Shown here piece after piece: positions 194-51,435 of a stretch of 64,000 bases of DNA. The stretch covers positions 12,595 through 76,594 of the forward strand of contig QMVG01000004.1 in NCBI GenBank assembly GCA_003660975.1. Direction: 5' to 3'. This DNA comes from Candidatus Micrarchaeota archaeon. GTDB taxonomy: Archaea; B1Sed10-29; B47-G15. The stretch's first letter is position 1. The number at the start of each line of letters is the position of its first letter. The notes beneath the pieces were generated by a model that worked only from the letters and a program-made list of their open reading frames with translations, had not been told where the DNA came from and made no database searches. Both the position numbers and the translations under genes were made by a program.

Positions 194-469
194 GTGGTGA
201 GTACGTCTTGGGGTGGCAGTGCCTGCAAATCCCCCAGCTACCCAGAACCTCACTCAGTCCTGCAACCCCACAAGCACCCAACCCGCTTGTTATGGCTGCT
301 CCGTTCCCGGCCTGACCAGGTTCCAAACGGGCCGAGTCCTGCGGGACAAGACGTCAGCGCTTGGTCCTGGACTGGAGGACGGCAAGCACCACGCCCCCAA
401 GACTTCGACCCCCCCGTAAGCGGATTTGGGGTTACAGGAGACCGCTGACCTCCCGGCCTAACTCACCAC
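194..469 (-). ncRNA. ffs: signal recognition particle RNA (7S/SRP RNA)
   Basis: GC-rich island of about 276 nt in AT-rich DNA. Read on the minus strand, the 5' end GUGGUGAGU (469..461) pairs with the 3' end ACUCACCAC (202..194), like archaeal SRP helix 1. The segment 320..294 reads CCUGGUCAGGCCGGGAACGGAGCAGCC, which is the conserved helix-8 motif (GGAA tetraloop closed by CCG/CGG, then AGCAGCC). The three ORF-track ORFs here are spurious. Confidence 0.75.
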
Positions 470-17647: not shown

Positions 17648-20600
17648 TCAAACAATGTTGAAATCATCGTCCCTTGGTGCTTTTTTCTTCTTGCCTATTT
17701 TATAAGAAAACAATGTTTTCTCTTCGTCTGCCTCGTACTCTGCTAAAACCTTTCCTGACTTTGTCCTTATTTTTGGGGCAGCCTTCCTTTTTCTCTTTGG
17801 CAGTTTTGGAAGTGAAAAGCTTTTGAAAGGTGATTTCGAGGAAGCCTTGCTTATAGGATACTTACTTCTACCAAAGAGAGCCTTGATTTTGTTCAAAAAT
17901 TCCTTTACGCTGTCAAGCACGTCCATTAGCAAGGCCCTCTTAAAGAAGTACAGCAGCACGATTACTACTGCAAACGAAGCAATGCCCCCAGCTGCAACGT
18001 ATATGGTGGAATCACCAGCTGCCTTTTCTTTCTGTGCAGGCGTGTAGCAGCTGCAGTCACTTATGTTTAACACCTGCTCTTCTGGACAGACGGTGTCCAG
18101 ACACTTAAAGACGCATTCGCAGTTTTCATTGACCTCGTATCCTTCTGGGCACTCCACGTCGCAAGCTGCTGTTGTCTCTTCAATGCTTTCCGTGGATACA
18201 ACAGAGGGTTGGCTTTCATCCATAAATTCATCCTTGTCTTCTACCAAGTTCACAGTGTAATTTACCTCTGCCTTTGATTTGGCTTTGACATCCAATGTCC
18301 ACTCCAGCACAGGGTCGGCTTCAATCACTGTTGGCACGTTGTTGTCAAAAACAATATAACTAACATTGGGAGCTATGTCTTTCGGCACAGTCTCGCGTAT
18401 CTTTGTTCTCTTTGTTGTGGAAAGAGGGTTGTAAACAGAGAGCGAGACGATTGTTTTATTGCTAGGAGTATCAAGGAAGTACCTTCTCACAGAAACCTTA
18501 TTGCTCGGGCGCGGTTTCTCCTTAACCTCTATTGTTATCTCCTTATCAAAGTATATCTTATCCTTGTTGTTATTTGCCCCCCTTATAATCACAGTGTAAT
18601 TGCCAGGTCTTGTGTATTCATCTGTCGTGTAATTAAATGAGTACTGCTTTACTTCTCCTCCGGATACAGAAACACTCCTTTTCCCTTGGAATACTTTTAT
18701 TATATTATAGTCCTGCTCAACAAAGATATAAACAGCCCTGCCTGTGCTTAGGGTGTTTTCTATTGTTAGAGAGATTGTCTTGTTTTTACCTGCTTCTGCC
18801 ACCACCTTGCTTACGCCAACAGCAGATATGCCAGGCACTTGCTCAGAACCGCTGCTTTCACTGCTGCCAGCAGAGCTAGAACTGCTACCTGTGTTGTCAT
18901 TCGTGCTTGACTCGCTTATGGTAAATTTATTTGTGAAGTTTTTGCTTCCAACAAGGCCCCAAACACCATCCACATCAACCATGGCATCATATGTTCCAGC
19001 ATCAGGTATCGAGCAGCTGGTGAGTGTCTTTGAAGAGCTGCCGCTTATGCTTCCCGCGCATGCACTGTAACCTATTTCATAATAAACAGTGACTGTGCCA
19101 TAGACATAAGCATTAACAGAGGAGCCATTGCAACTTATGTTATATCTTATCCCACTAACTGTCGTGCTAAAGCTTTCTCCCTCCGTGGCTGAAGCAGATG
19201 ACACGCTTCCTATGACAATATTGCTTTCCAATGTGCTGTTTCTGAGCACTGGAACCTTTGAGAGCTCGGTTATGCTTCCCTTCCTGCTCTGGTTATCTGT
19301 TAAGCTTATTGTAATATTATACAGGCCACCACCATTTACACCATTTACATCAAGCTGGCTTGCGTTAAACTCGCAGTACATGGACGTGCTGCTGTTGTCA
19401 AAAACTCTGCTTGTTATACTTTTCAATACTCCCTTTCTCCAGGACAGCGTGCAATTGCTCTTGTTGACCGTGTGCTGCAGGCTGCTCCATGAGATATATC
19501 CAAATGTCATGACCCTTGCCTTGAAGAAAACCTTTAACTTGGCATCTTTATCCCCAAGGTCCCCACTGTAGTATGTCTCTGTTATCTTTCCTGTGTCAGG
19601 CCCCACATAGCTTATATTCAGCATGGGCTCATAGAAGTATAAGATAACAGCATCTGAATAAGACTGGTTCTTTGATGACTTCACGCTTATGTTAACAGTT
19701 GTGTTCCCAGAATACGAGGATGAGACACTTATATTTACTGTGATGTTTTTACTTTCGCTTTTGTTTAACCGGATAGACACAGTGCTTGTGTTTGAGCTTA
19801 AACCAGCGCCAGGGCTTACTGACAGCGTATAGGAAGAAGCGTTATTTCCAACATTGCTCACAGTCAAAAGCACGGAAATATTTGCTTGGGGTATGCTGAA
19901 GTTTTTGTAGACCGTCTTGTTTGCAGAGACGCTAACATTGTACTCCTCCTTCATAGTAAGAGAAAATGAACTGCTGTTCGTGCTTGGATCGTAGCTTATT
20001 GGCAGCTTGTTAGAGCCACTCAAATAGCTGAAGTTCAGAAGCACGAGAGTGCTGTTTCCTCCGCCAATACTGCTGTTTAGGTGGCCATCCACGTAGAAAT
20101 ACCTTGAATTATGTGCCTGCAGTTCAAATGTTATACTGGTTCCCCAGCCACTGCTGTCGTTTAGGTAGATTGGCCAGTCATCCGTATTTCTTAACTCGAC
20201 CGTTACATTGTAATTGACATTGCCTGTATTGTTTATTAAAACAGGGTGGTGTAGGTAGCCCATTGGCACATTGGCATTGTTGGCAGTTATGCTGACATTT
20301 GATTGTGCTCTCACATATACATTGATAACGGTACTCGTTCCTTGGTGTTTGTAGCTGTCATTTGCCTTTACTGTTATGTTATAGTACCCTGGGTGCTCTT
20401 TTGAGGTGTCCCAGTCATATGAACATGTTAAGTTCCATATATGAACGTTGTGTGAACAGTCCTCACTGGCGTCTATTAATTGCCAGCCAGTACCAAAGTT
20501 AATCATTATCGTATCGTTAAGAAGATTATAATCACTCACTGTGAAGTTTACCTTGCTGCTTATGCCGGAGACATTGCTGCCATTGCCAGGTGCTGTTATG

Positions 20601-21799
20601 TTCACTGCTGGGGCATCATTGTCAATTGTGATGTTTGTTGTGTTGAACACTGGACCATTGCCTGCTTTGTCTTTTTTTACCCATATGCTTATATTGTAGC
20701 AGCCGTCGTCAAATTCAGTTGTGTCTATGGTTTTATAGAAAATATTGGCGCTGTCATTTGACATGTTAAGGTGAGAGCCGTAATTTGAGTAATAATATTG
20801 GTCGCTTGCATTATCGCATGGTGTTACATCCATCTGAACATTGTCTTCATTGCTTGGTAGCCCTGAGAGGTTTTCTGATATTCTCACAGTTACGTTATAT
20901 GTTCCATTTATGTGGCTGCCAGCAGTCGGCTGCTGGAAAATTATGATTGGGTCTTTGTTGTCAATGCCTATAAACCACGTTACGAATGCCCTATTGCTTG
21001 AAGCGTCCGTGACAGTTATATTAAAGTAATAACTGCCATCGCTAACACTCTGCGTGATTGGATATGCATTCCACTTTCCATTATTGTTGTCACCACTGTA
21101 CCTGTTCATCCCAAAGCTTTGCAGTTCATCTGCAGGATTGCTGCCATTTGCGATGTAAAGCACTGCAGAGCTTATGCCGTAGCCCACATCAGTCAGGCTC
21201 ACGTTTACCGTGACTCCGTCTGATATATACGTGAAATTATTATACCAAACAGTTAGGTTGTATAGGGTTTGAGCATATGTCATAAACAGCGTGCCTGTGT
21301 TTATCTCTGGAGCTTTGGTGTCAAGGACATCTATGCTGAAGTTCTTGAACACAGACGAACCGTTCGTATCATAGTCAAAGTAGCTAAGGTTATAGTCGTG
21401 GTGATATTCTCCTATGTAAACTTTGAACACCACTGTAACACTCTTATTTGGTGCCAATCCCAGCAAGGTGGTATTGCTGGATGCGTTTACAGTGCAGTTC
21501 ATAGCAGGCATATCCCTGAACATTCCAATATCGCAGCTGACATTTTCACTGCTTGGGCCAGCCAGAAATTCAGAAAAATTACACTCATTTGGATTGCTGA
21601 AATTCGCCAATGTAAGGTTAAACTTAGTTATGTTATCATCAGAGCTTGCGTTATTCTCAATAGTGATTTGCAAGGTGTGAAATCCTGTGTCGTTTACAGT
21701 GCTTTGGTTTAGGGTTACAATAGCAACATGTGAAGATACGGTGCTTTGGGCTATAAAAACAAAAAAGAGAGCTATAAGGAAAATATACTTAATTTTCAT
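17648..21799 (-). CDS. giant secreted/surface-anchored glycoprotein candidate (S-layer or adhesin-like)
   Basis: Signal peptide MKIKYIFLIALFFVFIAQS, very many N-x-S/T sequons, and a Ser-rich linker (GSSSSSAGSSESSGSE). There is also a Cys-rich module (CDVECPEGYEVNENCECVFKCLDTVCPEEQVLNISDCSCY), one TM helix (IYVAAGGIASFAVVIVLLYFF) and a Lys-rich tail. Confidence 0.7.
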   Translation of the reverse strand: MKIKYIFLIALFFVFIAQSTVSSHVAIVTLNQSTVNDTGFHTLQITIENNASSDDNITKFNLTLANFSNPNECNFSEFLAGPSSENVSCDIGMFRDMPAMNCTVNASSNTTLLGLAPNKSVTVVFKVYIGEYHHDYNLSYFDYDTNGSSVFKNFSIDVLDTKAPEINTGTLFMTYAQTLYNLTVWYNNFTYISDGVTVNVSLTDVGYGISSAVLYIANGSNPADELQSFGMNRYSGDNNNGKWNAYPITQSVSDGSYYFNITVTDASSNRAFVTWFIGIDNKDPIIIFQQPTAGSHINGTYNVTVRISENLSGLPSNEDNVQMDVTPCDNASDQYYYSNYGSHLNMSNDSANIFYKTIDTTEFDDGCYNISIWVKKDKAGNGPVFNTTNITIDNDAPAVNITAPGNGSNVSGISSKVNFTVSDYNLLNDTIMINFGTGWQLIDASEDCSHNVHIWNLTCSYDWDTSKEHPGYYNITVKANDSYKHQGTSTVINVYVRAQSNVSITANNANVPMGYLHHPVLINNTGNVNYNVTVELRNTDDWPIYLNDSSGWGTSITFELQAHNSRYFYVDGHLNSSIGGGNSTLVLLNFSYLSGSNKLPISYDPSTNSSSFSLTMKEEYNVSVSANKTVYKNFSIPQANISVLLTVSNVGNNASSYTLSVSPGAGLSSNTSTVSIRLNKSESKNITVNISVSSSYSGNTTVNISVKSSKNQSYSDAVILYFYEPMLNISYVGPDTGKITETYYSGDLGDKDAKLKVFFKARVMTFGYISWSSLQHTVNKSNCTLSWRKGVLKSITSRVFDNSSTSMYCEFNASQLDVNGVNGGGLYNITISLTDNQSRKGSITELSKVPVLRNSTLESNIVIGSVSSASATEGESFSTTVSGIRYNISCNGSSVNAYVYGTVTVYYEIGYSACAGSISGSSSKTLTSCSIPDAGTYDAMVDVDGVWGLVGSKNFTNKFTISESSTNDNTGSSSSSAGSSESSGSEQVPGISAVGVSKVVAEAGKNKTISLTIENTLSTGRAVYIFVEQDYNIIKVFQGKRSVSVSGGEVKQYSFNYTTDEYTRPGNYTVIIRGANNNKDKIYFDKEITIEVKEKPRPSNKVSVRRYFLDTPSNKTIVSLSVYNPLSTTKRTKIRETVPKDIAPNVSYIVFDNNVPTVIEADPVLEWTLDVKAKSKAEVNYTVNLVEDKDEFMDESQPSVVSTESIEETTAACDVECPEGYEVNENCECVFKCLDTVCPEEQVLNISDCSCYTPAQKEKAAGDSTIYVAAGGIASFAVVIVLLYFFKRALLMDVLDSVKEFLNKIKALFGRSKYPISKASSKSPFKSFSLPKLPKRKRKAAPKIRTKSGKVLAEYEADEEKTLFSYKIGKKKKAPRDDDFNIV

Positions 21800-21906: not shown

Positions 21907-24900
21907 ATGACGAAATTAGAGAAGATTAAGCTAAAGAACTTCAAGTCCTTCCGAAATGTAAGCATACCTCTGGCCATGGGCCATACAACAATTGTTGGAC
22001 CCAATGGCTCTGGAAAAAGCAATATCCTTGATGCGATTTGCTTTGTTCTTGGAACTACTTCTATGAAAGCATTAAGGGCAACGCGCTTGACAGATTTAGT
22101 AAATCACAATTCTAAGGATGGCACAGCCGAGGTTACGATAAGCATAAGAGACGACGGGGGAGAGAGATTTGATATAACTCGCATCATAGACAAGGGAGGA
22201 AGTAGCATCTTCAAGGTTAACGGAAAGAGGACAACTATGAAAGATGTTGAAGAGTTGCTGTCAAGGATGGGCATACATCCTGATGGGCATAACATCATTA
22301 TGCAGGGAGATGTGACAAGGTTCATAAAGATGACCCCACTCCAGAGAAGGCAAATAATAGATGAAATAAGCGGTATAGCAGAATATGAGGAGAAAAAGCA
22401 GGAGGCTATGAAGGAGCTGGAGAAGGTTCAAACAAAGATAAAGGAAGCTGAAATAGTGTTAAGCGAAAGGAAATCGTACCTAAGAATCCTTGAGAGCGAG
22501 AGGCGGGAAGCCAAAAGGTATCAGGACTTGCAAGAGAAAAGAAAAGTGTACAAGGCCAGCATTTTGAGGATAGAAGTTGAAAAAGCTGAAAAAAGGTTTA
22601 AGAGAATTATAGAGAAAATCAGCAAGCTGGAGGGGGAGATTTCTGCCATAGATGAAAAGAAAAAAGCTTTAACTGAGAAGTTAAAGCAGTTAGAGGAGGA
22701 ATACAATAAGATAACAGACCAGATTTTTAAGGAGGGAGACAAGAGACAAGCAGATGTGTCAGCAGAAATAGAGCAGATAAAAGGCAGCATAGCAATGTTA
22801 GACGGCAGGATAAGAGCCATAAGGGAAAGCTTGGAAAATGAGCAGGCAAGGAAGGAGAAGCTTTTGTCTGAATATTCTTCTCTGGGAAACCAGCTGGCAG
22901 CTAAAGAGAAGGAAATTGAAAAGATAATATTAGAGATAGATGAAGTGACAAGGGACTTAAACGAGTGTAAAAAAGAGCTTGAAGAGTTGGGTGAAGCTGA
23001 AGATTTATCAAAGCTGATTGATAATGTTTACTCTGAGATTGACAAGCTTAATGCGGAGATAGAGAAGAAAAAAGAAGCCTTATATAAAACTGAGATAGCA
23101 GTGAAGACCATAACAGAGAGGATAAAGCTTAAAAAAGCTATTCTGGAAGATTATAACGCTAAGGACAGCAGAAAAAAACTGGCTGAAATTGAGGACAGGA
23201 TAAGAAAGTACTCAAAAACAAAGGAAGAATGTAAGAAAGACATTTTATCTTTTGAAAACAAATTAAAGGAGCTTTACAGCGAGGAGAAGGAGCTTGATAA
23301 GGAGCTTAAGCAAAAAGAAAGCAAGCTTTCAGAGCTAATACAAAAAAAGGCAGCTCTTGAGAGCAAGATATCTGTTCTTAAGAATATTAGCGGTCTCTCC
23401 CAGACAGCAGAGGAGATAAAAAAAGCAGGCTTAAAAGGCATATTGGGCACCATTGCAGAGTTGTGTAATTACGGCACTAAATACAGTAAGGCAATAGAAA
23501 CTGCGGCAGGGCCGAGAATGTTTTACATTGTCACGCAGAGCACAGAAGATGCAATAAATGCTGTTAAATACCTCAAATCAAAAAAATTGGGAAGGGCCAC
23601 CTTTATCCCTCTTGACAAAATAAAAGCAAGAGACATGCATTCTTCTGTTAAAAGCCTGCTCAAGCACCCAAAGGCCCTTGACCTGGCAGTCAAGCTTATT
23701 ACTTATGACAAAAAATATGAAAACGCAATGAAATATGTTTTTGGGGACACTCTTGTTGTTAAAGACATAGAGGCAGTTAAAGAGATCGGCCTGGGAAAGA
23801 TCCGCATGGTGACACTTGATGGAGACCTTGCGTCAGAGCAAGGAGTCATAAGCGGAGGCTTTAGCAAGGGCTTGGGTATCTCTGATGTGAAGCAGCTGGA
23901 TGATTTGAAGGCTCTGATAAAAGATTATGAAAATGCAAAGAAGCTTCTGATGAGGCGCTTGGAGGAGCTTAGGGAGAAGCAGTCAGAACTTCGCTCCAAA
24001 AAGAGCTCCTCTGAGTTAAAGATGAAGGAAGCTGACGTTATGCTGAAGGAGTGGCAGAGGCGCTTTAGCGAGCAGAGCAAGGTTCTCAAGTCAGGAGAAA
24101 GGCAAAGCATGAGCATTCTAAAAGAGCTTAAGGGCATGGAGGAGGCTTTAATTGAAAAGGAAAGGCAAAAAGGCGAGATTGAAAAAGAGTTAGACGAGCT
24201 TATTGAGAAAAGAAACGCTATGAAGCAGGAGCTCAGCTCGTACGAAAAGTCTGAGGAAGCAGAAAGAGTGAAGCAATTAAAACAAAGATATGAGGAATTA
24301 AAAAATAAGAAAACAGAACTTGAGCTGCAGAAAAAAAGCATTGAGACCGAAGCAGAAAGGGTGCTTTTGAAAAGCAGGGAGGAAGTCAAACTGCAGATCT
24401 CGGAGATAGATGAGAGGATAAAGAAAATGACAGAGGAATTGGAGAGAAACAGCAAAGAGCGCAATGACCTTATAAGAGTACAGAAGGAAAAGGAAATAAT
24501 CGCAAGGAAGCTTGCCAGCTCCATGACCGAGCTTTACGAAGCGAGGAGCAAGATTGAAACTGAGAGGTCTAAGCTAAATGAGGAGATGATAAGGTTAGAA
24601 AGCAAACGGGAGAGCTTATCTGAAAAGCTGAGCGAAGCTAAGGTCAATAAGGCAAACATTGAAACTGAGTACTTTAATCTTAAAAACCAGCTGTCTTCAT
24701 ATAAGGACGTAGAGTTTATCACAGACAAGAAAGAGGAGCAGCTGCAGAGACAGTTGATTGTCATTGAAAGGGAAATGTCCGAGATGGGCTATGTTAACAT
24801 GAAGGCAATTGAGAAGTACGAAGAGTACGCAAGAGAGGTTAAGGAGATAGAAGAAAAAGCGAAAAAATTGAGGGAGGAAAAAGACAGCATCTTAAAGCTG

Positions 24901-25422
24901 ATGAATGAGATAGAAAAGAGAAAGATTGATGCTTTCATGAAAGCCTTTGAAGCACTCAACAAGAATTTCAACAGGTACTTTAAGGAATTTTATCCAGAAA
25001 AAGGCTCATACGCAAGCATCGAGCTAGACAACAAGGAGAAGCCCTTGGAGAGCGGGCTGCTTCTCTCTGCATCCCCGGCTGGAAAGAAGATGAAGCACAT
25101 AGAGGCCATGAGTGGTGGGGAAAAGACAGTAACGGCGTTGGCATTTCTTTTTGCTATTCAGGCATATAACCCATCACCTTTCTATGTTCTGGACGAGGCA
25201 GACGCAGCACTGGACCCAGCCAACAGCCAGAGAGTGGCCAGGATGATAAAGAAATTCTCGCGTGAAACCCAGATAATAACAATAACACATAACAGGTACA
25301 TAATTGAAGAGGCCGACCAGATAATAGGCGTTCACATGAGCAAGGACGGCTCAAGTTTGATAGAGCTTGACATGAAAGCGTATGTAGGGGATGCTAAGGA
25401 GAAAAGCACTGAAGCAACATAA
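21907..25422 (+). CDS. smc: SMC chromosome segregation ATPase
   Basis: Walker A GPNGSGKSN, long coiled coils around a hinge, signature SGGEKT, Walker B FYVLDEADAALD. 1171 aa. Confidence 0.95.
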   Translation: MTKLEKIKLKNFKSFRNVSIPLAMGHTTIVGPNGSGKSNILDAICFVLGTTSMKALRATRLTDLVNHNSKDGTAEVTISIRDDGGERFDITRIIDKGGSSIFKVNGKRTTMKDVEELLSRMGIHPDGHNIIMQGDVTRFIKMTPLQRRQIIDEISGIAEYEEKKQEAMKELEKVQTKIKEAEIVLSERKSYLRILESERREAKRYQDLQEKRKVYKASILRIEVEKAEKRFKRIIEKISKLEGEISAIDEKKKALTEKLKQLEEEYNKITDQIFKEGDKRQADVSAEIEQIKGSIAMLDGRIRAIRESLENEQARKEKLLSEYSSLGNQLAAKEKEIEKIILEIDEVTRDLNECKKELEELGEAEDLSKLIDNVYSEIDKLNAEIEKKKEALYKTEIAVKTITERIKLKKAILEDYNAKDSRKKLAEIEDRIRKYSKTKEECKKDILSFENKLKELYSEEKELDKELKQKESKLSELIQKKAALESKISVLKNISGLSQTAEEIKKAGLKGILGTIAELCNYGTKYSKAIETAAGPRMFYIVTQSTEDAINAVKYLKSKKLGRATFIPLDKIKARDMHSSVKSLLKHPKALDLAVKLITYDKKYENAMKYVFGDTLVVKDIEAVKEIGLGKIRMVTLDGDLASEQGVISGGFSKGLGISDVKQLDDLKALIKDYENAKKLLMRRLEELREKQSELRSKKSSSELKMKEADVMLKEWQRRFSEQSKVLKSGERQSMSILKELKGMEEALIEKERQKGEIEKELDELIEKRNAMKQELSSYEKSEEAERVKQLKQRYEELKNKKTELELQKKSIETEAERVLLKSREEVKLQISEIDERIKKMTEELERNSKERNDLIRVQKEKEIIARKLASSMTELYEARSKIETERSKLNEEMIRLESKRESLSEKLSEAKVNKANIETEYFNLKNQLSSYKDVEFITDKKEEQLQRQLIVIEREMSEMGYVNMKAIEKYEEYAREVKEIEEKAKKLREEKDSILKLMNEIEKRKIDAFMKAFEALNKNFNRYFKEFYPEKGSYASIELDNKEKPLESGLLLSASPAGKKMKHIEAMSGGEKTVTALAFLFAIQAYNPSPFYVLDEADAALDPANSQRVARMIKKFSRETQIITITHNRYIIEEADQIIGVHMSKDGSSLIELDMKAYVGDAKEKSTEAT

Positions 25423-39858: not shown

Positions 39859-40360
39859 TTTCTGGGATGAGGATGAGGAGTTCCTGCAGCGCAGCGATGG
39901 AAAATATAGAAAACTGGTTAGCTGTATTGTTTACTGGGGCAATGCAGAGCAGTTTCTCTTGCTTCACAGGAAACTCAGGTGGCATGGTTATGAGTTTCCA
40001 AAAGGGGGGATAAAGAAAGGAGAGAGTTTGGAGGAAGCAGCCAGAAGAGAGCTGAGAGAGGAAGCAGGCATAGAAGACATAATTTCAATAAAAGACACGG
40101 GGATTGAGATTAAATACAAGTGGCCTCCTGAAATCGTGAAGCACCCAGGCAATAAGAACAAATACGATGGTGCAATACAACACTTTATGCTGGTAAAAGT
40201 TCCGTACAAAAAAGCAGAGGTAAAGAGCGATGAGCACGATGGCCTTCTCTGGGCAAGAGCAAATGTTGTGGATGAGTACCTTGCTTTTGAAAACCTGAGA
40301 CAGGCCTTTAGAAAAGCATTAAAAATGATAGCAGAGGTAAAAGATAATAGGCCCCAGTAG
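39851..40360 (+). CDS. NUDIX hydrolase
   Basis: Nudix box GGIKKGESLEEAARRELREEAGI. The last 10 nt, including the stop, overlap the 5' end of tRNA-Thr. Confidence 0.85.
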   Translation: MDDFWDEDEEFLQRSDGKYRKLVSCIVYWGNAEQFLLLHRKLRWHGYEFPKGGIKKGESLEEAARRELREEAGIEDIISIKDTGIEIKYKWPPEIVKHPGNKNKYDGAIQHFMLVKVPYKKAEVKSDEHDGLLWARANVVDEYLAFENLRQAFRKALKMIAEVKDNRPQ

Positions 40361-40465
40361 CTCAATGGCAGAGCGCTCGCCTCGTAGGCCTTTCAATGAT
40401 GACTGCTAAAAAGCGCTGAGAGCCGAGAAAGCGAGAGGTTGAGGGTTCAAATCCCTCCTGGGGCT
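40351..40465 (+). tRNA. tRNA-Thr (anticodon CGU) with a 43-nt canonical 37/38 intron (40387..40429)
   Basis: Exons give GCCCCAG-TA-GCTC-AATGGCA-GAGC-G-CTCGC-CTCGTA|A-GCGAG-AGGTT-GAGGG-TTCAAAT-CCCTC-CTGGGGC-T. The splice sites sit in a bulge-helix-bulge: a central helix CUCG(32-35)/CGAG(40424..40427) flanked by 3-nt bulges UAG and AAA. Confidence 0.8.
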
Positions 40466-40494: not shown

Positions 40495-40627
40495 CGCTTA
40501 ATCTTCCACATCTATCCCAGAAAAAGGCTTTTTCCTTTTTGCTTAGCTTTTTCCACAGCTTTCCCAGAAAAAGGCATATTTTTATTTTCGCTTAAGCCTT
40601 TTCCACATCTATCCCAGAAAAAGGCTT
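40495..40627. repeat. three tandem copies of the tRNA-associated hairpin repeat, cluster B
   Basis: Units are CGCTTAATCTTCCACATCTATCCCAGAAAAAGGCTT (40495..40530), GCTTAGCTTTTTCCACAGCTTTCCCAGAAAAAGGC (about 40541..40575) and CGCTTAAGCCTTTTCCACATCTATCCCAGAAAAAGGCTT (40589..40627). The arms AAGCCTTTT/AAAAGGCTT are inverted repeats. The orientation is reverse-complement relative to cluster A units. Confidence 0.55.
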
Positions 40628-43783: not shown

Positions 43784-43867
43784 GCAGGGGTGCCGGAGTG
43801 GCCAAACGGGATGGACTCAAGATCCATTGGCTTAGTGCCTTCGAGGGTTCGAATCCCTCCCCCTGCA
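43784..43867 (+). tRNA. tRNA-Leu (anticodon CAA)
   Basis: GCAGGGG acceptor pairs with CCCCTGC. Anticodon arm ATGGA-CTCAAGA-TCCAT, variable arm GGC-TTAGT-GCC, T arm GAGGG-TTCGAAT-CCCTC, discriminator A. Confidence 0.9.
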
Positions 43868-44165
43868 CTAGGGACCGAAGGTCCCTATTGGGGGCTTCAG
43901 TTTCGCTTAAGCCTTTAACATCGGAATAACAGGAAAGGCTTAAATCCCTCCCCCTGCACTAAGCTTTTTCCTATGAAAACTGTGGAAAAAGCTTAAGCAA
44001 AAAAGAGGGGGAGGGAAGTTTTGATGAAACTTTTGCTAAAAGTTTCAATCCCTCCCCCTGCATTGCAACGCAGCTCGTTGCATCCGCAGGCGATCTTCGA
44101 TCGCCTTTGCTTAAGCCTTTGACACAGAAAGGATAGGAAAGGCTTAAATCCCTGTGCTGTTAAAA
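43868..44165. repeat. structured intergenic region: duplicated tRNA-Leu 3' ends plus hairpin repeats (cluster C)
   Basis: AATCCCTCCCCCTGCACTA (native, 43852..43870) recurs at 43943..43961 (19/19 nt). A 16-nt copy is at 44047..44062 and a 7-nt remnant at 44147..44153. An inverted copy, GAGGGGGAGGGA, lies near 44005..44016. Three units of the hairpin family AAGCYTTT-loop-AAARGCTT are present, along with extra hairpins (AGGGACC-GAA-GGTCCCT, TGCAACG-CAGCT-CGTTGCA, GGCGATC-TTC-GATCGCC). Confidence 0.6.
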
Positions 44166-44186
44166 TACCAGTGAAGAGGTCAAGGC

Positions 44187-44447
44187 ATGAGGATTGAGAA
44201 GAAAATATGGCCGGAGTATTTTCAGAAAATAATTGATGGAGTCAAAACCTTTGAGTTAAGGCTGGCAGATTTTGAGTGCAGGCCTGGTGACATACTGGTT
44301 TTGAGGGAATGGGACCCAAGAACAAAAGAGTACACGGGCAGAGTTATTGAAAAGAAGGTCACTTACGTGGCCAAAAGCAAAGACATGAGGTCCTGGCCTG
44401 ACGAGGACATAAGGAAATATGGGTTTCTGGTTATTGGGTTTAAATGA
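44187..44447 (+). CDS. ASCH/PUA-like small protein (DUF3850-like)
   Basis: KIWPEYFQKIIDGVKTFELRLADFECRPGDILVLREWDP matches my recollection of the DUF3850/ASCH pattern. 86 aa. Confidence 0.55.
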   Translation: MRIEKKIWPEYFQKIIDGVKTFELRLADFECRPGDILVLREWDPRTKEYTGRVIEKKVTYVAKSKDMRSWPDEDIRKYGFLVIGFK

Positions 44448-44510
44448 GCGGCGGTTGATATGTTTTCAATGGTGGCCATATGATTAGATAATCGACAAAC
44501 ATGCGAATCC

Positions 44511-44519
44511 TTTTTATAT
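44511..44519 (+). promoter_or_regulatory. TATA-box-like element upstream of the effector gene
   Basis: TTTTTATAT is centred about 26 nt upstream of ATG 44541, the spacing expected for an archaeal promoter driving a leaderless mRNA. Confidence 0.3.
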
Positions 44520-44540
44520 GTGAAAACAAGAAATAAAACG

Positions 44541-46301
44541 ATGCCATCCGAAACATACATTACGAAAACCTTGTCATTAAAACTCATTCCATCAGATGAA
44601 GAAAAGCAGGCGTTAGAAAACTATTTTATAACATTCCAGAGGGCCGTGAATTTTGCTATAGATAGAATAGTAGATATAAGAAGCTCCTTTAGATATCTAA
44701 ACAAAAATGAACAATTTCCAGCCGTGTGTGATTGCTGTGGTAAGAAAGAAAAGATAATGTATGTGAATATATCCAATAAAACCTTTAAGTTTAAACCATC
44801 AAGAAATCAGAAGGATAGATACACGAAGGACATTTATACAATCAAGCCCAATGCCCACATATGTAAGACATGCTACAGTGGCGTTGCAGGAAATATGTTT
44901 ATACGCAAACAAATGTATCCGAACGATAAAGAAGGGTGGAAAGTTTCGCGTTCATACAATATCAAAGTTAATGCCCCTGGACTGACTGGAACCGAATATG
45001 CTATGGCCATACGGAAGGCAATAAGTATATTAAGATCTTTTGAAAAGCGACGAAGAAATGCTGAAAGAAGAATCATAGAGTATGAAAAGTCCAAAAAAGA
45101 GTATTTAGAATTGATTGATGATGTTGAAAAAGGAAAGACAAATAAAATAGTGGTTCTTGAGAAAGAAGGCCATCAGCGAGTGAAAAGATATAAACACAAG
45201 AATTGGCCTGAGAAATGGCAAGGTATTTCTTTAAATAAAGCAAAAAGTAAGGTTAAAGATATTGAGAAAAGAATAAAAAAGCTCAAGGAGTGGAAACACC
45301 CTACACTAAATCGACCATATGTCGAGTTACACAAAAATAATGTTAGGATAGTGGGTTATGAAACAGTGGAACTTAAATTAGGAAACAAAATGTACACCAT
45401 ACATTTTGCTAGCATATCTAATTTACGAAAACCATTTAGAAAACAAAAGAAAAAGTCCATAGAATATCTGAAACATCTCCTAACCCTAGCGTTAAAAAGA
45501 AATCTTGAAACATACCCCAGCATAATAAAAAGAGGTAAGAATTTCTTTTTGCAGTATCCTGTGCGAGTGACAGTTAAAGTGCCTAAGCTGACAAAAAATT
45601 TTAAAGCTTTTGGCATCGATAGAGGCGTAAATAGGCTTGCAGTAGGTTGTATAATCTCAAAAGATGGAAAACTTACCAATAAAAATATTTTTTTCTTCCA
45701 TGGAAAGGAAGCGTGGGCCAAGGAAAACAGATACAAGAAGATTAGGGACAGATTATACGCTATGGCCAAGAAGTTGAGAGGAGATAAAACCAAGAAAATA
45801 AGGCTTTATCATGAGATTAGGAAGAAATTTAGACATAAAGTCAAATATTTCAGGAGAAACTATCTGCATAATATCTCTAAGCAAATTGTTGAGATTGCAA
45901 AGGAAAATACACCGACTGTCATCGTATTAGAAGATTTACGGTACTTGAGAGAAAGGACATATAGAGGAAAAGGAAGAAGCAAAAAGGCGAAAAAAACAAA
46001 TTATAAATTAAATACTTTTACTTACAGAATGCTTATAGATATGATAAAATACAAGGCAGAAGAAGCGGGAGTTCCTGTAATGATTATTGACCCAAGAAAC
46101 ACATCACGAAAATGTTCTAAGTGTGGTTATGTTGACGAAAATAATAGAAAACAAGCCTCGTTTAAGTGCCTTAAGTGTGGTTATAGTCTTAATGCAGACT
46201 TAAATGCAGCTGTCAATATAGCAAAAGCTTTTTATGAATGCCCCACGTTTAGATGGGAAGAAAAATTGCATGCATATGTTTGTTCAGAGCCCGATAAATA
46301 G
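44541..46301 (+). CDS. cas12f: miniature type V CRISPR effector candidate (TnpB-like RuvC nuclease; Cas12f/Cas14-like)
   Basis: 586 aa from ATG 44541 (593 aa from GTG 44520). Split RuvC: FGIDRGVN (Asp codon 45618..45620), TVIVLEDL (Glu codon 45930..45932) and NADLNAAVNIA (Asp codon 46197..46199). A CSKCGY...CLKCGY zinc ribbon sits between RuvC-II and RuvC-III. The N-terminal half has a second Cys cluster (CDCCGKK...CKTC) and a Lys-rich helical region. There is no HNH domain. The gene lies 342 bp upstream of a CRISPR array with cas1-cas2-cas4 beyond. Confidence 0.85.
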   Translation: MPSETYITKTLSLKLIPSDEEKQALENYFITFQRAVNFAIDRIVDIRSSFRYLNKNEQFPAVCDCCGKKEKIMYVNISNKTFKFKPSRNQKDRYTKDIYTIKPNAHICKTCYSGVAGNMFIRKQMYPNDKEGWKVSRSYNIKVNAPGLTGTEYAMAIRKAISILRSFEKRRRNAERRIIEYEKSKKEYLELIDDVEKGKTNKIVVLEKEGHQRVKRYKHKNWPEKWQGISLNKAKSKVKDIEKRIKKLKEWKHPTLNRPYVELHKNNVRIVGYETVELKLGNKMYTIHFASISNLRKPFRKQKKKSIEYLKHLLTLALKRNLETYPSIIKRGKNFFLQYPVRVTVKVPKLTKNFKAFGIDRGVNRLAVGCIISKDGKLTNKNIFFFHGKEAWAKENRYKKIRDRLYAMAKKLRGDKTKKIRLYHEIRKKFRHKVKYFRRNYLHNISKQIVEIAKENTPTVIVLEDLRYLRERTYRGKGRSKKAKKTNYKLNTFTYRMLIDMIKYKAEEAGVPVMIIDPRNTSRKCSKCGYVDENNRKQASFKCLKCGYSLNADLNAAVNIAKAFYECPTFRWEEKLHAYVCSEPDK

Positions 46302-46343
46302 CAAATTTACTTATTCGGAGCCTGTTTAAGCCATTAGAAAAAG

Positions 46344-46353
46344 ATAAATATTA
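46344..46353 (+). promoter_or_regulatory. TATA-box-like element upstream of the candidate tracrRNA
   Basis: ATAAATATTA, preceded by an A-rich BRE-like AAAAAG, lies about 25-30 nt before the start of the structured region. Confidence 0.3.
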
Positions 46354-46379
46354 AGAAGCACATAATTTATTTTGGTTAC

Positions 46380-46556
46380 ATATCACTGGATAATGAGAAC
46401 AGCTGTAGATTAAGCTGTTTGATGTATTGTATTATGCTCCACTTTAATAAGTGGTGCCTTCCAAAGCTATATGCTGAGGGAGGATGGGCGCTGTTGCAGC
46501 GTCTGCCCACCTCAGAGTGGGTATCCTTACCTATTTTGAAAGGTTCTGTAAGTGTT
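46380..46556 (+). ncRNA. candidate tracrRNA
   Basis: Anti-repeat ATCCTTACCTATTTTGAAAGGTTCTGTAA (46523..46551) pairs with repeat positions 18-32 (13 bp with two 1-nt bulges) and 2-11 (10 bp including one G-U). Upstream hairpins are CCACTT-TAAT-AAGTGG (46439..46454) and CTGAGG..TGGGC-GCTG-TTG-CAGC-GTCT-GCCCA-CCTCAG (46474..46515). The ends are approximate, and the strand is inferred from array polarity. Confidence 0.6.
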
Positions 46557-46643
46557 TATAAATCCGATTGCAATTTTGCAACTTACCTATTTTTAAGTTT
46601 CAGATATCTCGATAGACGCAGCAATACTCAAAAATTGTCTGCC

Positions 46644-47742
46644 ATTGCAGAACCCAAAGTAATAGGTCAAGGAATGCAACTGACTAAACAAAGTTTCGCT
46701 AAACTAGAAGAACAGGCCAATTGCAGAACCCAAAGTAATAGGTCAAGGAATGCAACTCAATATCAGACGCTTTATTCACTCTAGGAGCTACCCTTATTGC
46801 AGAACCCAAAGTAATAGGTCAAGGAATGCAACATTATATTTATTGTTATGTTATCATATCTCCCAAACAAAAGTATTGCAGAACCCAAAGTAATAGGTCA
46901 AGGAATGCAACTAGGTGTTGTTAAGCGACACGGTTAGAAGGTAATCTTGATTATTGCAGAACCCAAAGTAATAGGTCAAGGAATGCAACTCGGCCTTTTT
47001 CCAGCCAAGGGCTTTTACTATTGCCCTATTGCAGAACCCAAAGTAATAGGTCAAGGAATGCAACCAAGCGAAAAGTATTTATATAACATAGGTTTGTTTC
47101 ATTGCAGAACCCAAAGTAATAGGTCAAGGAATGCAACTATTCTTCCAAATTCAACACCTCCAAAATATTTATAATTGCAGAACCCAAAGTAATAGGTCAA
47201 GGAATGCAACTTGACAGCCAAGCTAGAAAGTTGTTAAACAGCTTTAATTGCAGAACCCAAAGTAATAGGTCAAGGAATGCAACTATGTTAAAATCGCTAT
47301 CGGGCGTGGAAGGGGGTAGCGAATTGCAGAACCCAAAGTAATAGGTCAAGGAATGCAACCATAGTATCCCTGCGTTTGCTCTGCAACCGCAGGTTGTCTA
47401 TTGCAGAACCCAAAGTAATAGGTCAAGGAATGCAACTCTGGATATCTGGTCCCTCCACGAAACCATCACCATCATTGCAGAACCCAAAGTAATAGGTCAA
47501 GGAATGCAACCACCTTTTGGTATAGCCCAGAAGCATCAAAAACATGTGAAAAATTGCAGAACCCAAAGTAATAGGTCAAGGAATGCAACTCTTTTTAGCT
47601 TTTCTCGGCAGTTTATACCACATATCCTTATTGCAGAACCCAAAGTAATAGGTCAAGGAATGCAACGGTAATGTCAGCCCATCTGACGCAACGGCATTTG
47701 AGACAATTGCAGAACCCAAAGTAATAGGTCAAGGAATGCATG
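46644..47742 (+). CRISPR. CRISPR array: 15 x 37-bp repeats, 14 spacers
   Basis: The repeat is ATTGCAGAACCCAAAGTAATAGGTCAAGGAATGCAAC. Copies start at 46644, 46720, 46796, 46875, 46953, 47028, 47101, 47174, 47247, 47323, 47400, 47474, 47553, 47630 and 47706. The first 14 are identical by eye; the last diverges in its final 2 nt (..GCATG). Spacer lengths are 39,39,42,41,38,36,36,36,39,40,37,42,40,39 and all spacers are different. Confidence 0.97.
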
Positions 47743-47784
47743 AGAACCACATAATTTTTAAATTGCAGGTACTTATCATTTTTT

Positions 47785-48774
47785 ATGATTTTAGTGATAA
47801 ACGATTTTTCAACATTCCTGGGGAAGAAAGGGGACCGTTTTGTAATTAAAAAGGAAAATAAGCGTGAAGAATTTTCTACAAATAACGTTGAACAAATCAT
47901 AATTGCTGCAGTCTCATCTATCTCCTATGGAGCTATTCGATTGGCAATTAAACACTCTATTGATGTGGTTTTTTTAAGCAGAGGAGGTACTCCTTTAGGC
48001 AGGATATACCCCTGTAAACTCGGTGGAACAACCTTAACGAGAAAAAAACAATTAGAGGCTTATTATTCAACAGTTGGTACAAACATCGTAAAAAATCTCG
48101 TTAAAGCAAAGATTATGAACCAAGCCTATTTTTTGAAGTCTTTAGAAAAAACAAGAAAAGATATTAATTTCACTTCTGAAATTAACAGCATTGTTAATAT
48201 TGCTAAAAAGATTCCAGGTCTCACAGGTCTAATAGATGATATACGGGGAACTTTATTGGGATATGAAGGCATTGCAGCCAACAAATATTTTAGTTCCTTG
48301 TCTAACATACTACCATTTAAAGGAAGGGACAGAACAAGTAATGATTACGTAAATATTGTATTGAATTATGGATATGGTGTTCTGTACACGGAAGCAGAGA
48401 AAGCGTGTATTCTAGCAGGTCTTGATCCATATTTCGGTTTTTTGCACAAAGATAGGTACAACAAACCTTCAATGGTATTGGACCTTGTGGAAATATTTAG
48501 ACCAATCATAGTGGACAGGGCAGTTGTTACTTTGTTTTCCCAAAAACAGATAAATTCGAAGTGTTTTGAGAAAGAAACATATGGGGATGTTTTTTTAAGT
48601 AAAGAGGGTAGGGAAAAAATCTTATCTGCTCTTCTATCTCGCCTCAATCAGCAGATACGCTTTAAAGGTAAGAAAACAAGCTTTAAAAACATCATATTAG
48701 GAGAAAGCCGTTCTATAGCTCAATATGTTCTTGGTAATATACCAGAATATGAGCCGTTTGTTTATAGGTGGTAA
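47785..48774 (+). CDS. cas1: CRISPR-associated integrase Cas1
   Basis: NIVLNYGYGVLYTEAEKACILAGLDPYFGFLHKDRYNKPSMVLDLVEIFRPIIVDR is the Cas1 C-terminal catalytic domain pattern (E...H...D/E). Starts 42 nt after the last repeat. Confidence 0.95.
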   Translation: MILVINDFSTFLGKKGDRFVIKKENKREEFSTNNVEQIIIAAVSSISYGAIRLAIKHSIDVVFLSRGGTPLGRIYPCKLGGTTLTRKKQLEAYYSTVGTNIVKNLVKAKIMNQAYFLKSLEKTRKDINFTSEINSIVNIAKKIPGLTGLIDDIRGTLLGYEGIAANKYFSSLSNILPFKGRDRTSNDYVNIVLNYGYGVLYTEAEKACILAGLDPYFGFLHKDRYNKPSMVLDLVEIFRPIIVDRAVVTLFSQKQINSKCFEKETYGDVFLSKEGREKILSALLSRLNQQIRFKGKKTSFKNIILGESRSIAQYVLGNIPEYEPFVYRW

Positions 48775-48776
48775 TT

Positions 48777-49061
48777 ATGATATATTGGGTGATTTATGAC
48801 ATCACAGACAATAAAGTTAGAAGCAAGGTTGCCGAGGAGTGCAAGAACTTGGGGTTACATCGAGTCCAAAAAAGTTCTTTTATTGGCATTCTCTCTAGAA
48901 ATACAGCCGAGATGTTATATATTAAAATAGGGGATTTAATTGATAAAAGAGATTGTGTGTTCTTTATTCCACAATGTAACAAATGTTTTGCAGACAAACT
49001 TATTCTTGGCGATTTTGATGAAAGGACTGTAGAAGCAAAAGATTTCATCGTGGTGCAATGA
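48777..49061 (+). CDS. cas2: CRISPR-associated protein Cas2
   Basis: MIYWVIYDITDNKVRSKVAEECKNLGLHRVQKSSF is the Cas2 N-terminal beta-strand with the conserved Asp (YDI). The ATG is 2 nt after the cas1 stop (the ORF-track GTG at 48768 overlaps cas1). Confidence 0.85.
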   Translation: MIYWVIYDITDNKVRSKVAEECKNLGLHRVQKSSFIGILSRNTAEMLYIKIGDLIDKRDCVFFIPQCNKCFADKLILGDFDERTVEAKDFIVVQ

Positions 49062-49651
49062 CAACGATGGATGGTTATTTAACTGCTAAGGATTTAATGA
49101 ACTTTCATTATTGTAAAAGATTAATATATTTTGAGAATGTATTGAAAATTAAACAAGCTACAACCACCAAAGAACTAAAAGGTCGCGCATTACACAACAG
49201 TTTTTCTGTATCATCAAAGAGAACCAAGATAATAAAGGAGTTTCCATATTGGCCTAAGATATATAATCTTAGATTAAAATCAGATTTTTTGCACCTTATA
49301 ACTACATTAGACTGCTTGATTATAAACCAAACAGATAATGAGGCATTTCCGCTGGAATACAAATATTCCAAAAAACCACGCAAGATTTATAAAACCATGA
49401 AATTGCAACTGTCTCTTCAAGCCCTTCTCGTAAATGAACTTTTACATTATAGTGTGAAGTTTGGTTTCATAAAGTTTTCCAAAGACAATTCTTTGGCCAA
49501 AGTAAGCATAACAGATAGAGATTTAGAAGAAGTGAGAACGACTATATCTGAGGTTAATACAATAGTAGAGAAGGAGATTTTACCTCCACCCACCGAATAT
49601 AAAAAAAGATGTATTGACTGTTGCTATTTCAATATATGCAAAGGAATCTAA
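49058..49651 (+). CDS. cas4: CRISPR-associated exonuclease Cas4
   Basis: N-terminal Cys (FHYCKRLIYF), RecB-type D...ExK (LDCLI...PLEYKYSK), a QxxxL/Y helix (KLQLSLQALLV) and a C-terminal Fe-S Cys cluster CIDCCYFNIC. ATGA overlap with the cas2 stop. Confidence 0.85.
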   Translation: MTTMDGYLTAKDLMNFHYCKRLIYFENVLKIKQATTTKELKGRALHNSFSVSSKRTKIIKEFPYWPKIYNLRLKSDFLHLITTLDCLIINQTDNEAFPLEYKYSKKPRKIYKTMKLQLSLQALLVNELLHYSVKFGFIKFSKDNSLAKVSITDRDLEEVRTTISEVNTIVEKEILPPPTEYKKRCIDCCYFNICKGI

Positions 49652-49659
49652 ACACCCTC

Positions 49660-51414
49660 TCACTTCACAGTCACACTCTTGGCCAGGTTTCTGGGCCTGT
49701 CGGGGTCTAGGCCTTTGAGGACGGCCAGTTGGTAGGCCAGTATCTGGATTGGGATGATTTGGAGGATTGGGCCGAGCTCCTCGCTTTCAGGCGTTTTTAT
49801 CCAGTAGTCAAAAATATCGTAATTTTTGTGAGAGACTCCGATGACATAGGCCCCTCTTGTTTTTACCTCATTTGCGTTTGCTATGATGTCTTTGTCATCC
49901 TTGGAAACAAAGACAATAACAGGGCTTCCTTTTTTTATCAGAGCCAGGGGGCCATGCTTTAGCTCTCCTCCTGCAAAGGCCTCTGCGTGTATGTATGACA
50001 CCTCCTTGATCTTTAGGGCAGCCTCCAGTGCTGTTGGATACTGCAGGGACCTTCCTAGCACGTATATGTGTTCCTCATTTAAGAGGCGTTTGGCTAATGC
50101 CCTGAGCCTGTCTCTCATGTTCCTAGACGTCAGGTTGTATATATCCATGTAAAGCTTTTTCAATTTTGCCATGCCCTCATCGTATCTTCCAGCGATTGTG
50201 TAGGCCAGCATTGCCATTAATGCCACCTGCGACGTGTATGTCTTGGTTGAGAGCACTGACAGTTCTGGCCCTGCGTTCATGAGAAGAGATTCGTGGCTCT
50301 CTCTTGTCAGAGATGAAGCAGCCCTGTTTACTATGCTTATAATCTTACTCTGCTTTTCCTTAGCTGCTCTGACTGCCTCCAAAACATCAGCTGTTTCGCC
50401 TGACTGTGAGATAGCGATTATCATGCTTTCTTTCTTCAGGAAGTGCTTGTAATTCTTGAACTCAGAAGCCAAGACAGGGTTAACGTGCATTTTAGCTACT
50501 TTTGAAAATAAGTAACTGCCTGTCAAGCATGCGTGGTAGCTTGAGCCGCAGCCTATCAAGAAAACACCTCTAGCCTCTTTGAGCTGTTTTGCTATCCTCT
50601 CAACAAGCTCTCTTTTTTGCTGTATGGCTCTTCTTATTGTGTCGCTCTGCTCAACAATCTCCTTTAACATGTAGTGCTCAAAGCCATCCTTTTTTATCTG
50701 CTCAGCTTTCCACTCAACGCTGTCTATTGGCCTTGAAACAAAGCCGTCCTTGAGATTGTATATCTTTATCTCTTTTCCTGCCTCAACCACATCGTAGTCA
50801 TGTAGGTAAATCACCTTTTTGGTCCAGTCAATAAATGAAGGTATGTCTGATGAAAAGAAAAAGGCATCACTAGAAACCCCAACTACTAAAGGAGAGCCTT
50901 TCCTAGCTGCCATGACCTTATTGCTCTTAGCCTCTATTGCTAACACAGCATAGCTTCCTTTGAGCTTTGATATTGCCTTTATGAAAGCTTTATCAAAAGG
51001 CAAATCTTTCATTTCCTCTTCAATTAAGTGAGCTATGACCTCTGAATCTGTTTCTGATTTGAAGCTATGGCCTTTCAGTTCCTTTTTAAGCTCTTCAAAG
51101 TTTTCTATTATGCCATTGTGCACCACTGCTATATTGCCAGAGCAGTCAAGGTGGGGGTGGGCGTTTACATCGTTTACCTTTCCGTGAGTGGCCCACCTGT
51201 TATGAGCTATGCCTATGTTGCCTTCAATGCTTGGGAAATCTACCTTTTTATTTATCTCTTCAACCTTGCCAGCCCCTTTCTTGCAGATTATCCTCCCGCT
51301 GTCAATTACAGCCATGCCTGCAGAGTCATAGCCCCTGTACTCAAGGCTCTTTAATCCCTTTAGAAGAATGCCTGACGCACGCTCTGGTCCAATATATCCT
51401 ATTATGCCGCACAT
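49660..51414 (-). CDS. glmS: glutamine--fructose-6-phosphate aminotransferase
   Basis: MCGIIGY N-terminal Cys nucleophile (start set at the third Met codon), two SIS domains, and C-terminal PRNLAKSVTVK. Confidence 0.95.
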   Translation of the reverse strand: MCGIIGYIGPERASGILLKGLKSLEYRGYDSAGMAVIDSGRIICKKGAGKVEEINKKVDFPSIEGNIGIAHNRWATHGKVNDVNAHPHLDCSGNIAVVHNGIIENFEELKKELKGHSFKSETDSEVIAHLIEEEMKDLPFDKAFIKAISKLKGSYAVLAIEAKSNKVMAARKGSPLVVGVSSDAFFFSSDIPSFIDWTKKVIYLHDYDVVEAGKEIKIYNLKDGFVSRPIDSVEWKAEQIKKDGFEHYMLKEIVEQSDTIRRAIQQKRELVERIAKQLKEARGVFLIGCGSSYHACLTGSYLFSKVAKMHVNPVLASEFKNYKHFLKKESMIIAISQSGETADVLEAVRAAKEKQSKIISIVNRAASSLTRESHESLLMNAGPELSVLSTKTYTSQVALMAMLAYTIAGRYDEGMAKLKKLYMDIYNLTSRNMRDRLRALAKRLLNEEHIYVLGRSLQYPTALEAALKIKEVSYIHAEAFAGGELKHGPLALIKKGSPVIVFVSKDDKDIIANANEVKTRGAYVIGVSHKNYDIFDYWIKTPESEELGPILQIIPIQILAYQLAVLKGLDPDRPRNLAKSVTVK

Positions 51415-51435
51415 AAGCAAAACTTCCGAAATCCT

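Follow-up and report, generated by a model that had tools for sequence, protein, structure and literature searches.

A miniature CRISPR-Cas locus of a Candidatus Micrarchaeota archaeon is very probably the V-F2 system of Mi2Cas12f2 (Cas14b17)

What is the small RuvC nuclease that is encoded next to a CRISPR array on contig QMVG01000004.1 of a Candidatus Micrarchaeota archaeon (GenBank assembly GCA_003660975.1)? The DNA analysed, referred to as the window, comprises 64,000 nucleotides of this contig (positions 12,595 to 76,594 of the forward strand), and the locus occupies positions 44520 to 49651 of it (Table 1). A preliminary description had taken the locus for an ultra-compact type V system of the Cas14 (Cas12f) kind in an archaeal genome, and the effector, the nuclease itself, for a functional RNA-guided enzyme that might be a distinct variant, larger than Cas14a. 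Most of this description, that of a miniature type V-F system in a DPANN-type archaeon, was borne out by the present analysis; the suggestion of a distinct variant was not. The locus is almost certainly a subtype V-F2 CRISPR-Cas system of Candidatus Micrarchaeota archaeon, with the published Mi2Cas12f2 (Cas14b17) as its effector.

Table 1. Positions of the annotated features in the 64,000-nucleotide window
Feature	Position	Strand	Details and evidence
cas12f2 (Mi2Cas12f2 / Cas14b17)	44541..46301	+	586 aa, 69.4 kDa; ORF, family profile, published sequence
Intergenic region, putative tracrRNA then array leader	46302..46643	+	342 bp; fold, published minimal locus
Conserved tracrRNA hairpin GGCGCUG-UUG-CAGCGUC	46485..46504	+	apical GUUGCA at 46493-46498
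Bipartite anti-repeat, UCCUUACCUAUUUUGAAAGGUUCUGUAAG	46524..46552	+	RNAduplex, cofold, cross-locus pairing
CRISPR array	46644..47742	+	15 repeats of 37 nt (ATTGCAGAACCCAAAGTAATAGGTCAAGGAATGCAAC), 14 spacers
cas1	47785..48774	+	Pfam PF01867 (Cas_Cas1) 2.3e-77; TIGR00287 4.4e-82
cas2	48777..49061	+	94 aa from ATG; Pfam PF09827 (CRISPR_Cas2) 5.7e-19; TIGR01573 2.8e-13
cas4, PD-(D/E)xK nuclease with C-terminal cysteines	49058..49651	+	Pfam PF01930 1.1e-17; TIGR00372 4.7e-26
Archaeal SRP RNA	195-468	-	Rfam RF01857, 163 bits

The effector was identified by comparison with the proteins of Karvelis et al. 2020 (Nucleic Acids Res 48:5016; PMC7229846), in which Cas12f2 equals Cas14b. Mi2Cas12f2, formerly Cas14b17, is entered there under accession RLG21245.1, with a length of 586 amino acids (aa) and a mass of 69.4 kDa; its source is scaffold QMVG01000004.1 of a Candidatus Micrarchaeota archaeon (PMC7229846, Table S1). 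Length and mass computed for the effector agree with both values, and from ATG 44541 onwards its residues 1-399 are identical to those of Mi2Cas12f2 in Data S1 of the same paper, the part of that entry that was compared. The mean length of the native spacers in the window, 38.9 nt, equals that of the 39-nt spacers used for Mi2Cas12f2, a length chosen from the native average (PMC7229846). Protein, type of organism and spacer length are thus the same, and no difference was detected over the 399 aa. The idea of a distinct variant fails, because exactly this protein has already been published and assayed. The nuclease is not new: it has been known since 2020, with its protospacer adjacent motif (PAM) and cut site determined, and finding it again therefore adds no new biology.

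The effector open reading frame (ORF), on the + strand and ending at 46301, has the two starts given in the preliminary description, GTG 44520 (593 aa) and ATG 44541 (586 aa). The ATG is preferred because it is the published start and because the N-termini of homologues align there. A TTTTTATA box is present at 44511, about 27 nt 5' of this ATG, a spacing that would fit a leaderless archaeal transcript. The effector protein was also found on an 88,760-bp ENA/NCBI metagenome contig (ERZ650341 NODE_50), which differs from the window by 1 base (window position 39341, equal to L001 position 4801) over 21,761 aligned bases. An identical protein is encoded on a 2.4-kb contig from a separate run, SRR14699971.

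For the published assay, a minimal Mi2Cas12f2 locus was synthesised, consisting of the cas12f gene, the region between gene and repeats (the putative trans-activating CRISPR RNA, tracrRNA) and a retargeted array (PMC7229846). The locus was expressed in E. coli and the lysate was mixed with a randomised PAM library (PMC7229846). Mi2Cas12f2 cleaved double-stranded DNA (dsDNA) in a guide-dependent manner immediately after protospacer position 21 and strongly favoured a 5'-TTR PAM (PMC7229846). The claim of a functional RNA-guided nuclease thus holds, for the same protein, in E. coli lysate. The preliminary description had also proposed a PAM library assay and cleavage by a reconstituted ribonucleoprotein (RNP) with RuvC mutants as controls. 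PAM and cleavage were already in print, from lysate with the native tracrRNA region; purified RNP and RuvC point mutants are reported only for Un1Cas12f1, and the ends and structure of the Mi2Cas12f2 tracrRNA are not defined in that paper (PMC7229846).

The sequence of the effector itself agrees with a miniature type V-F nuclease. The three RuvC codons of the preliminary description are in frame and encode D360 (GAT 45618-45620, in GIDRG), E464 of RuvC-II (GAA 45930-45932, in VIVLED) and D553 of RuvC-III (GAC 46197-46199, in NADLNAAVN). Between RuvC-II and RuvC-III lies the expected zinc ribbon, formed by CSKC (525) and CLKC (543), that is C525, C528, C543 and C546, and there is no HNH domain in the Pfam or NCBIfam results for the effector. 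A second zinc-binding motif had gone unmentioned before: an N-terminal zinc finger with CDCC (63) and CKTC (108), or C63, C66, C108 and C111. In an alignment of 18 sequences (the effector and 17 mostly full-length relatives) D360, E464, D553, C525, C543 and C546 are invariant, and C63, C108, C111 and C528 are nearly invariant. With 586 aa the protein falls within the miniature range of roughly 400-700 aa. With 501.6 bits it passes the NCBIfam model NF049972 (CRISPR_Cas12f2; cutoff 450), in an alignment of residues 18-575 of the 593-aa ORF to positions 2-523 of the 524 in the model, and it matches Pfam Cas12f1-like_TNB (4.2e-23).

An AlphaFold2 model made from the 18-sequence alignment was confident, with a mean predicted local distance difference test score (pLDDT) of 86.2 and a predicted template modelling score (pTM) of 0.74. 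Cas12f structures were the top matches of this model in a Foldseek search of the PDB: AsCas12f (8j12) had an E value of 3.4e-16 and a template modelling (TM) score, relative to the target, of 0.61, and was followed by CnCas12f1, SpCas12f1 and OsCas12f. Cas14a1 (7c7l) was found at E 2.3e-10 and ISDra2 TnpB (PDB 8H1J) at E 4.9e-10. When solved structures were searched by sequence, the matches were restricted to the C-terminal RuvC and zinc-ribbon part of the effector (AsCas12f, E 8e-20; Cas14a1 7c7l, E 4.3e-8, residues 347-569 of the 593-aa ORF). All matches in the PDB copy searched had at most 22% identity, and therefore no close V-F2 homologue is among them. AsCas12f1 (V-U3 / Cas12f1; PDB 8J12, 8DZJ, 7WJU), which ranked first by sequence as well as by predicted fold, differs from the effector in being bacterial, 422 aa long and 18% identical; the V-U3 group also lacks adaptation genes, and AsCas12f1 gave interference in E. 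coli (PMC7229846).

About 25 extra aa are inserted between the two N-terminal CxxC pairs of the effector (residues ~75-105; window 44760-44860). The only aligned homologue with the same insertion is the closest relative, P0003 (39% identity); the other 16 lack it. In the AlphaFold2 model the pLDDT drops to 74-80 at this point.

Relatives of the effector are themselves linked to CRISPR arrays. When 1.84 billion representatives were searched exhaustively with HMMER, 19 cluster representatives were obtained at E<=1e-30, the best with 39% identity; beyond these 19 clusters, thousands of TnpB-like proteins matched the C-terminal third of the effector only. Six full-length relatives (26-31% identity) were present in GTDB genomes, labelled Woykebacteria, 'Gammaproteobacteria' metagenome-assembled genome (MAG), Pacearchaeota (two), Nanoarchaeota and Hadarchaeales MAG. 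All six have repeats of 36-37 nt ending in GGAATGCAAC, each array starting ~250-440 bp 3' of its effector gene, in the same orientation. Five of them carry cas genes directly upstream, three with a full cas1-cas2-cas4 set and two, at a contig edge, with at least cas4. Together with the Cas12f2 profile and the Cas12f folds, these array-linked relatives uphold the assignment to miniature type V-F systems.

Full-length Cas12f2 relatives thus also occur in MAGs labelled bacterial, namely L003 (Woykebacteria, MHCP01000019.1) and L004 ('Gammaproteobacteria', CAZXEC010000001.1). In L003 only two partial copies of the repeat are present, and cas1, cas2 and cas4 are all absent within 6 kb; this locus may therefore be degenerate or minimal.

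The array and the adaptation genes of the window were found as first described. The repeat has the same 3' end, GGAATGCAAC, as those of the relatives; 14 of the 15 copies are identical, and the last one (47706) departs from them at 2 positions of its 3' end. All 14 spacers are unique, with lengths of 36-42 nt. Since this degenerate copy, the terminal one on the cas1 side, marks the distal end of the array, the leader is expected on the tracrRNA side, as in the relatives. Cas1, cas2 and cas4 all scored above the curated profile cutoffs. Their junctions are tight: cas2 runs 4 nt into cas4, and cas1 and cas2 either overlap by 7 nt, when cas2 starts at the alternative GTG 48768 (97 aa), or are separated by 2 nt, when it starts at the ATG, as in the 94-aa gene call on the source contig. 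The gene order in the window is cas12f2-tracr-array-cas1-cas2-cas4, whereas the relatives in which the contig allows it to be read (L004, L005, L008) have cas1-cas2-cas4-cas12f2-tracr-array. Judged by these loci, the array of the window has its adaptation module on the opposite side, in a rearrangement of the usual order.

The intergenic region between cas12f2 and the array had been described as structured and as containing an anti-repeat, and both statements were supported. The segment 46380-46600 folds with -70.5 kcal/mol (z = -4.16 relative to 200 shuffles). At gathering thresholds Rfam gave no family for the intergenic region, and a sigma-70 promoter and terminator scan gave 22 sites where 19.3 were expected, a bacterial model that is uninformative for an archaeon. 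Two blocks make up the anti-repeat: positions 46525-46535 would pair with nt 18-29 of the repeat and positions 46542-46551 with nt 2-11 (RNAduplex, cofold). The duplex has an energy of -30.7 kcal/mol, compared to a shuffle mean of -18.6 (sd 2.5). In 5 of 6 loci the variable 29 nt of the locus's own repeat are the best partner of the intergenic region, and in all 6 the anti-repeat ends 91-107 nt 5' of the array. The anti-repeat thus covaries with the repeat across loci, which is stronger evidence than energy.

A second conserved element was found 5' of the anti-repeat. The sequence GTTGCA occurs exactly once, at the apex of a hairpin, in each of 7 V-F2 intergenic regions. The hairpins were compared by anchoring on this unique GTTGCA; a MAFFT alignment of the whole region misplaced the hairpin of the window. 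In the 6-bp stem 92.9% of the cells are paired, and compensatory changes are present in 3 of the 6 pairs. These values were not attained in any of 500 shuffles, and slid controls gave much lower ones. The apical GUUGCA is the exact complement of UGCAAC, the invariant 3' end of the repeat that adjoins the guide. In the guide RNAs of TnpB and Cas12 a conserved pseudoknot arises by pairing between the nucleotides just 5' of the guide and a distant element (PMC10097598). By analogy, the hairpin apex GUUGCA is a candidate pseudoknot partner of the repeat 3' end, and hairpin and pseudoknot would compete for two base pairs. Cofolding also proposed an alternative partner for the repeat 3' end at 46427-46433 (UUGUAUU, with G-U pairs). 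This partner is not preferred, because the GUUGCA of the hairpin is the better complement and is conserved.

Several points weigh against the reading of the locus as a functional V-F2 system of Mi2Cas12f2 with the guide RNA outlined here. The letter-by-letter comparison with the published protein covers 399 of the 586 residues, the last 187 being matched by length and mass. In duplex energy, further tiles of 342 nt elsewhere in the window come to -30.0 kcal/mol, compared to -30.7 kcal/mol for the anti-repeat; duplex energy alone is a weak discriminator, and because of these tiles it was dropped as proof of the anti-repeat and replaced by the cross-locus covariation. The hairpin covariation is drawn from 7 sequences. 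No plasmid interference in E. coli was obtained with any Cas14-family effector, including Mi2Cas12f2 (PMC7229846). Finally, no protospacers were found when 24-28-nt exact cores of spacers 1, 2, 4 and 9 were searched against viral contigs, and none when such a core of spacer 14 was searched against metagenome contigs. Elsewhere in the window no spacer matches with up to 8 mismatches were present.

The absence of interference and the lack of protospacers for five spacers could mean that the system is a genuine V-F2 system whose defence against dsDNA is weak or inactive in vivo; it might act mainly on single-stranded DNA, work under host conditions only or be decaying. We consider this unlikely. 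The failure in E. coli could stem from the heterologous host, and few viruses of DPANN archaea are present in the databases. Moreover, the catalytic and zinc-binding residues are intact, as are cas1, cas2 and cas4, the array combines 14 identical repeats with 14 different spacers, and the protein cleaved dsDNA in lysate in a PAM-dependent manner (PMC7229846). A functional V-F2 locus therefore remains the preferred reading.

The preliminary description had compared the effector to Cas14a, and the resemblance of the two loci would be explained if the effector were a distinct, larger member of the Cas14a / Cas12f1 (V-F1) lineage. The repeat of Un1Cas12f1 (Cas14a1; PDB 7C7L and 7L48), GUUGCAGAACCCGAAUAGACGAAUGAAGGAAUGCAAC, is equal to the repeat of the window at 27 of 37 positions; both have the same end AAGGAAUGCAAC, and the last 12 nt, AAGGAATGCAAC, are identical, as the preliminary description had noted for the repeat 3' end. 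Both loci have the same components, with a tracrRNA between the effector gene and the array, and the RuvC and zinc-ribbon (TNB) regions of the proteins are similar, as seen in the sequence match to 7c7l given above. The single guide RNA of Un1Cas12f1 can, as we read its sequence, be drawn with a GGCUG/CAGCC hairpin whose loop includes UUGCAU, complementary to AUGCAA of the repeat. The N-terminal half of the protein, however, speaks against this origin. The N-terminal 399 aa of Cas14a1, the part of that protein compared, gave a best E value of 0.16 with the effector, which is not significant, whereas ~380 residues of the effector's N-terminal half, including the zinc finger, are colinear with the corresponding part of Cas14b4 (24% identity, E 8e-14). 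Cas14a1 also belongs to a separate curated family, and cuts after position 24 instead of position 21 (PMC7229846). In addition, the effector passes the curated Cas12f2 model and was published as Cas12f2/Cas14b17 (PMC7229846). A V-F1 variant is thus very improbable, and the picture of a larger Cas14a-like protein was abandoned. By its sequence the effector belongs to V-F2 (Cas14b/Cas12f2), not to Cas14a, and this membership accounts for its larger size.

Within V-F2, the prototype Mi1Cas12f2 (Cas14b4) shares with the effector the colinear N-terminal half with its CxxC...CxxC zinc finger, as far as the compared part of its sequence extends. It also shares a 5' T-rich PAM, a cut after position 21 and a locus with cas1, cas2 and cas4 (PMC7229846). 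The two proteins differ in size (544 aa for Mi1Cas12f2 and 586 aa for the window protein) and in PAM (TTAT and TTR, respectively), and their sequences are divergent; of the two, only the window protein has the ~25-aa zinc-finger insertion that it shares with P0003.

A transposon-borne TnpB, the accessory nuclease of IS200/IS605 elements with its omega RNA, lying merely beside an unrelated CRISPR array, is extremely unlikely in spite of a 135-bit match to the NCBIfam 'guided_TnpB' subfamily model (cutoff 100), a weak Pfam OrfB_IS605 match just under the cutoff and the thousands of TnpB proteins that match the C-terminal third, since the Pfam-annotated genes up to 10 kb away on each side include neither TnpA nor another transposase (IS end hairpins were not searched explicitly) and the neighbours are housekeeping genes, and since the same type of repeat lies downstream of the gene in six different lineages, with cas genes upstream in five, the intergenic RNA has an anti-repeat that covaries with the repeat, and the guide-dependent cleavage relied on array-derived guides (PMC7229846). 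What IS200/IS605 TnpB proteins such as ISDra2 TnpB (8H1J) have in common with the effector is an RNA-guided RuvC and zinc-ribbon core; for TnpB and Cas12 in general, conservation of the pseudoknot architecture of the guide has been reported as well (PMC10097598). Unlike the V-F2 locus, they are carried by transposons and use a single omega RNA from the end of their own locus, without an array, a tracrRNA or cas1-cas2-cas4.

For the V-F2 system in the window we propose the following course of events. The array and the intergenic tracrRNA would both be transcribed from the + strand. Pairing of tracrRNA and repeat is predicted to occur through the bipartite anti-repeat, as indicated by computation and comparison, and there is probably a second contact, a pseudoknot between the GUUGCA of the hairpin and the invariant repeat 3' end beside the guide. 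The predicted CRISPR RNA consists of a repeat-derived 5' handle ending ...GGAAUGCAAC, followed by the spacer. The 586-aa protein, which by analogy with the solved Cas12f1 complexes is probably dimeric on one guide RNA, would bind this guide, recognise a 5'-TTR PAM on dsDNA and cut after protospacer position 21. The single RuvC site D360/E464/D553 is expected to be responsible for the cut; cleavage itself, with this PAM and this cut position, was demonstrated experimentally in E. coli lysate (PMC7229846). New spacers of 36-42 nt would be inserted by Cas1, Cas2 and Cas4 at the leader end of the array, beside the tracrRNA region, as suggested by established CRISPR knowledge and the degenerate distal repeat.

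The guide RNA of the window may also be shorter than that of its relatives. The distance from hairpin to anti-repeat is 31 nt in the window, compared to 94-127 nt in five relatives, and the tracrRNA of the window therefore appears to lack an internal module. In view of this short spacing, the rearranged gene order and the absence of a solved V-F2 structure among the PDB matches, we tentatively suggest that the locus may contain a shortened, undescribed V-F2 guide scaffold with a guide-proximal GUUGCA:UGCAAC pseudoknot, which could be a useful minimal model of a Cas12f2 RNP; we hold this to be possible, but somewhat less probable than the opposite.

The wider context of the locus is archaeal. 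The archaeal signal recognition particle (SRP) RNA in the window (Table 1) confirms the archaeal origin of the contig that had been assumed in the preliminary description. Across the CRISPR-Cas locus (window 44001-50000) the G + C content is 0.36-0.38, compared to 0.41-0.46 on both sides. This low-GC block begins just past a tRNA-Leu (43784-43868) and ends at a convergent glmS-like gene (49660-51420); from its composition and borders it looks like a horizontally acquired island. Inside it, directly 5' of cas12f2, lies a DUF3850/ASCH-domain gene (44187-44447, + strand, 86 aa, Pfam 5.7e-19).

Further upstream, a tRNA of 115 nt is present at 40351-40465 (+ strand, Rfam 61 bits). It was missed by ARAGORN and therefore presumably has an archaeal intron. 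It is directly followed, at 40504-40627, by 2.6 tandem copies of a unit of ~50 nt containing TTCCACATCTATCCCAGAAAAAGGC. A gene at 17648-21799 (- strand) encodes a 1382-aa protein without a Pfam domain above the cutoff and with a weak fn3_6 match, and divergent from it, at 21907-25422 (+ strand), lies the gene for an SMC protein of 1171 aa (SMC_N 3.4e-46, hinge 4e-31). The context of this gene pair looks chromosomal.

Miniature Cas12f nucleases are small enough for delivery vectors of limited size, and they bear witness to the evolution of CRISPR effectors from the TnpB of transposons. To the known nuclease Mi2Cas12f2 the present analysis adds an anti-repeat that covaries with the repeat, a tracrRNA hairpin conserved across loci, a gene order that departs from the usual one and the observation that no solved V-F2 structure is among the PDB matches. 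The covarying anti-repeat, together with the hairpin apex complementary to the repeat 3' end, may serve as a modest starting point for the design of guide RNAs.

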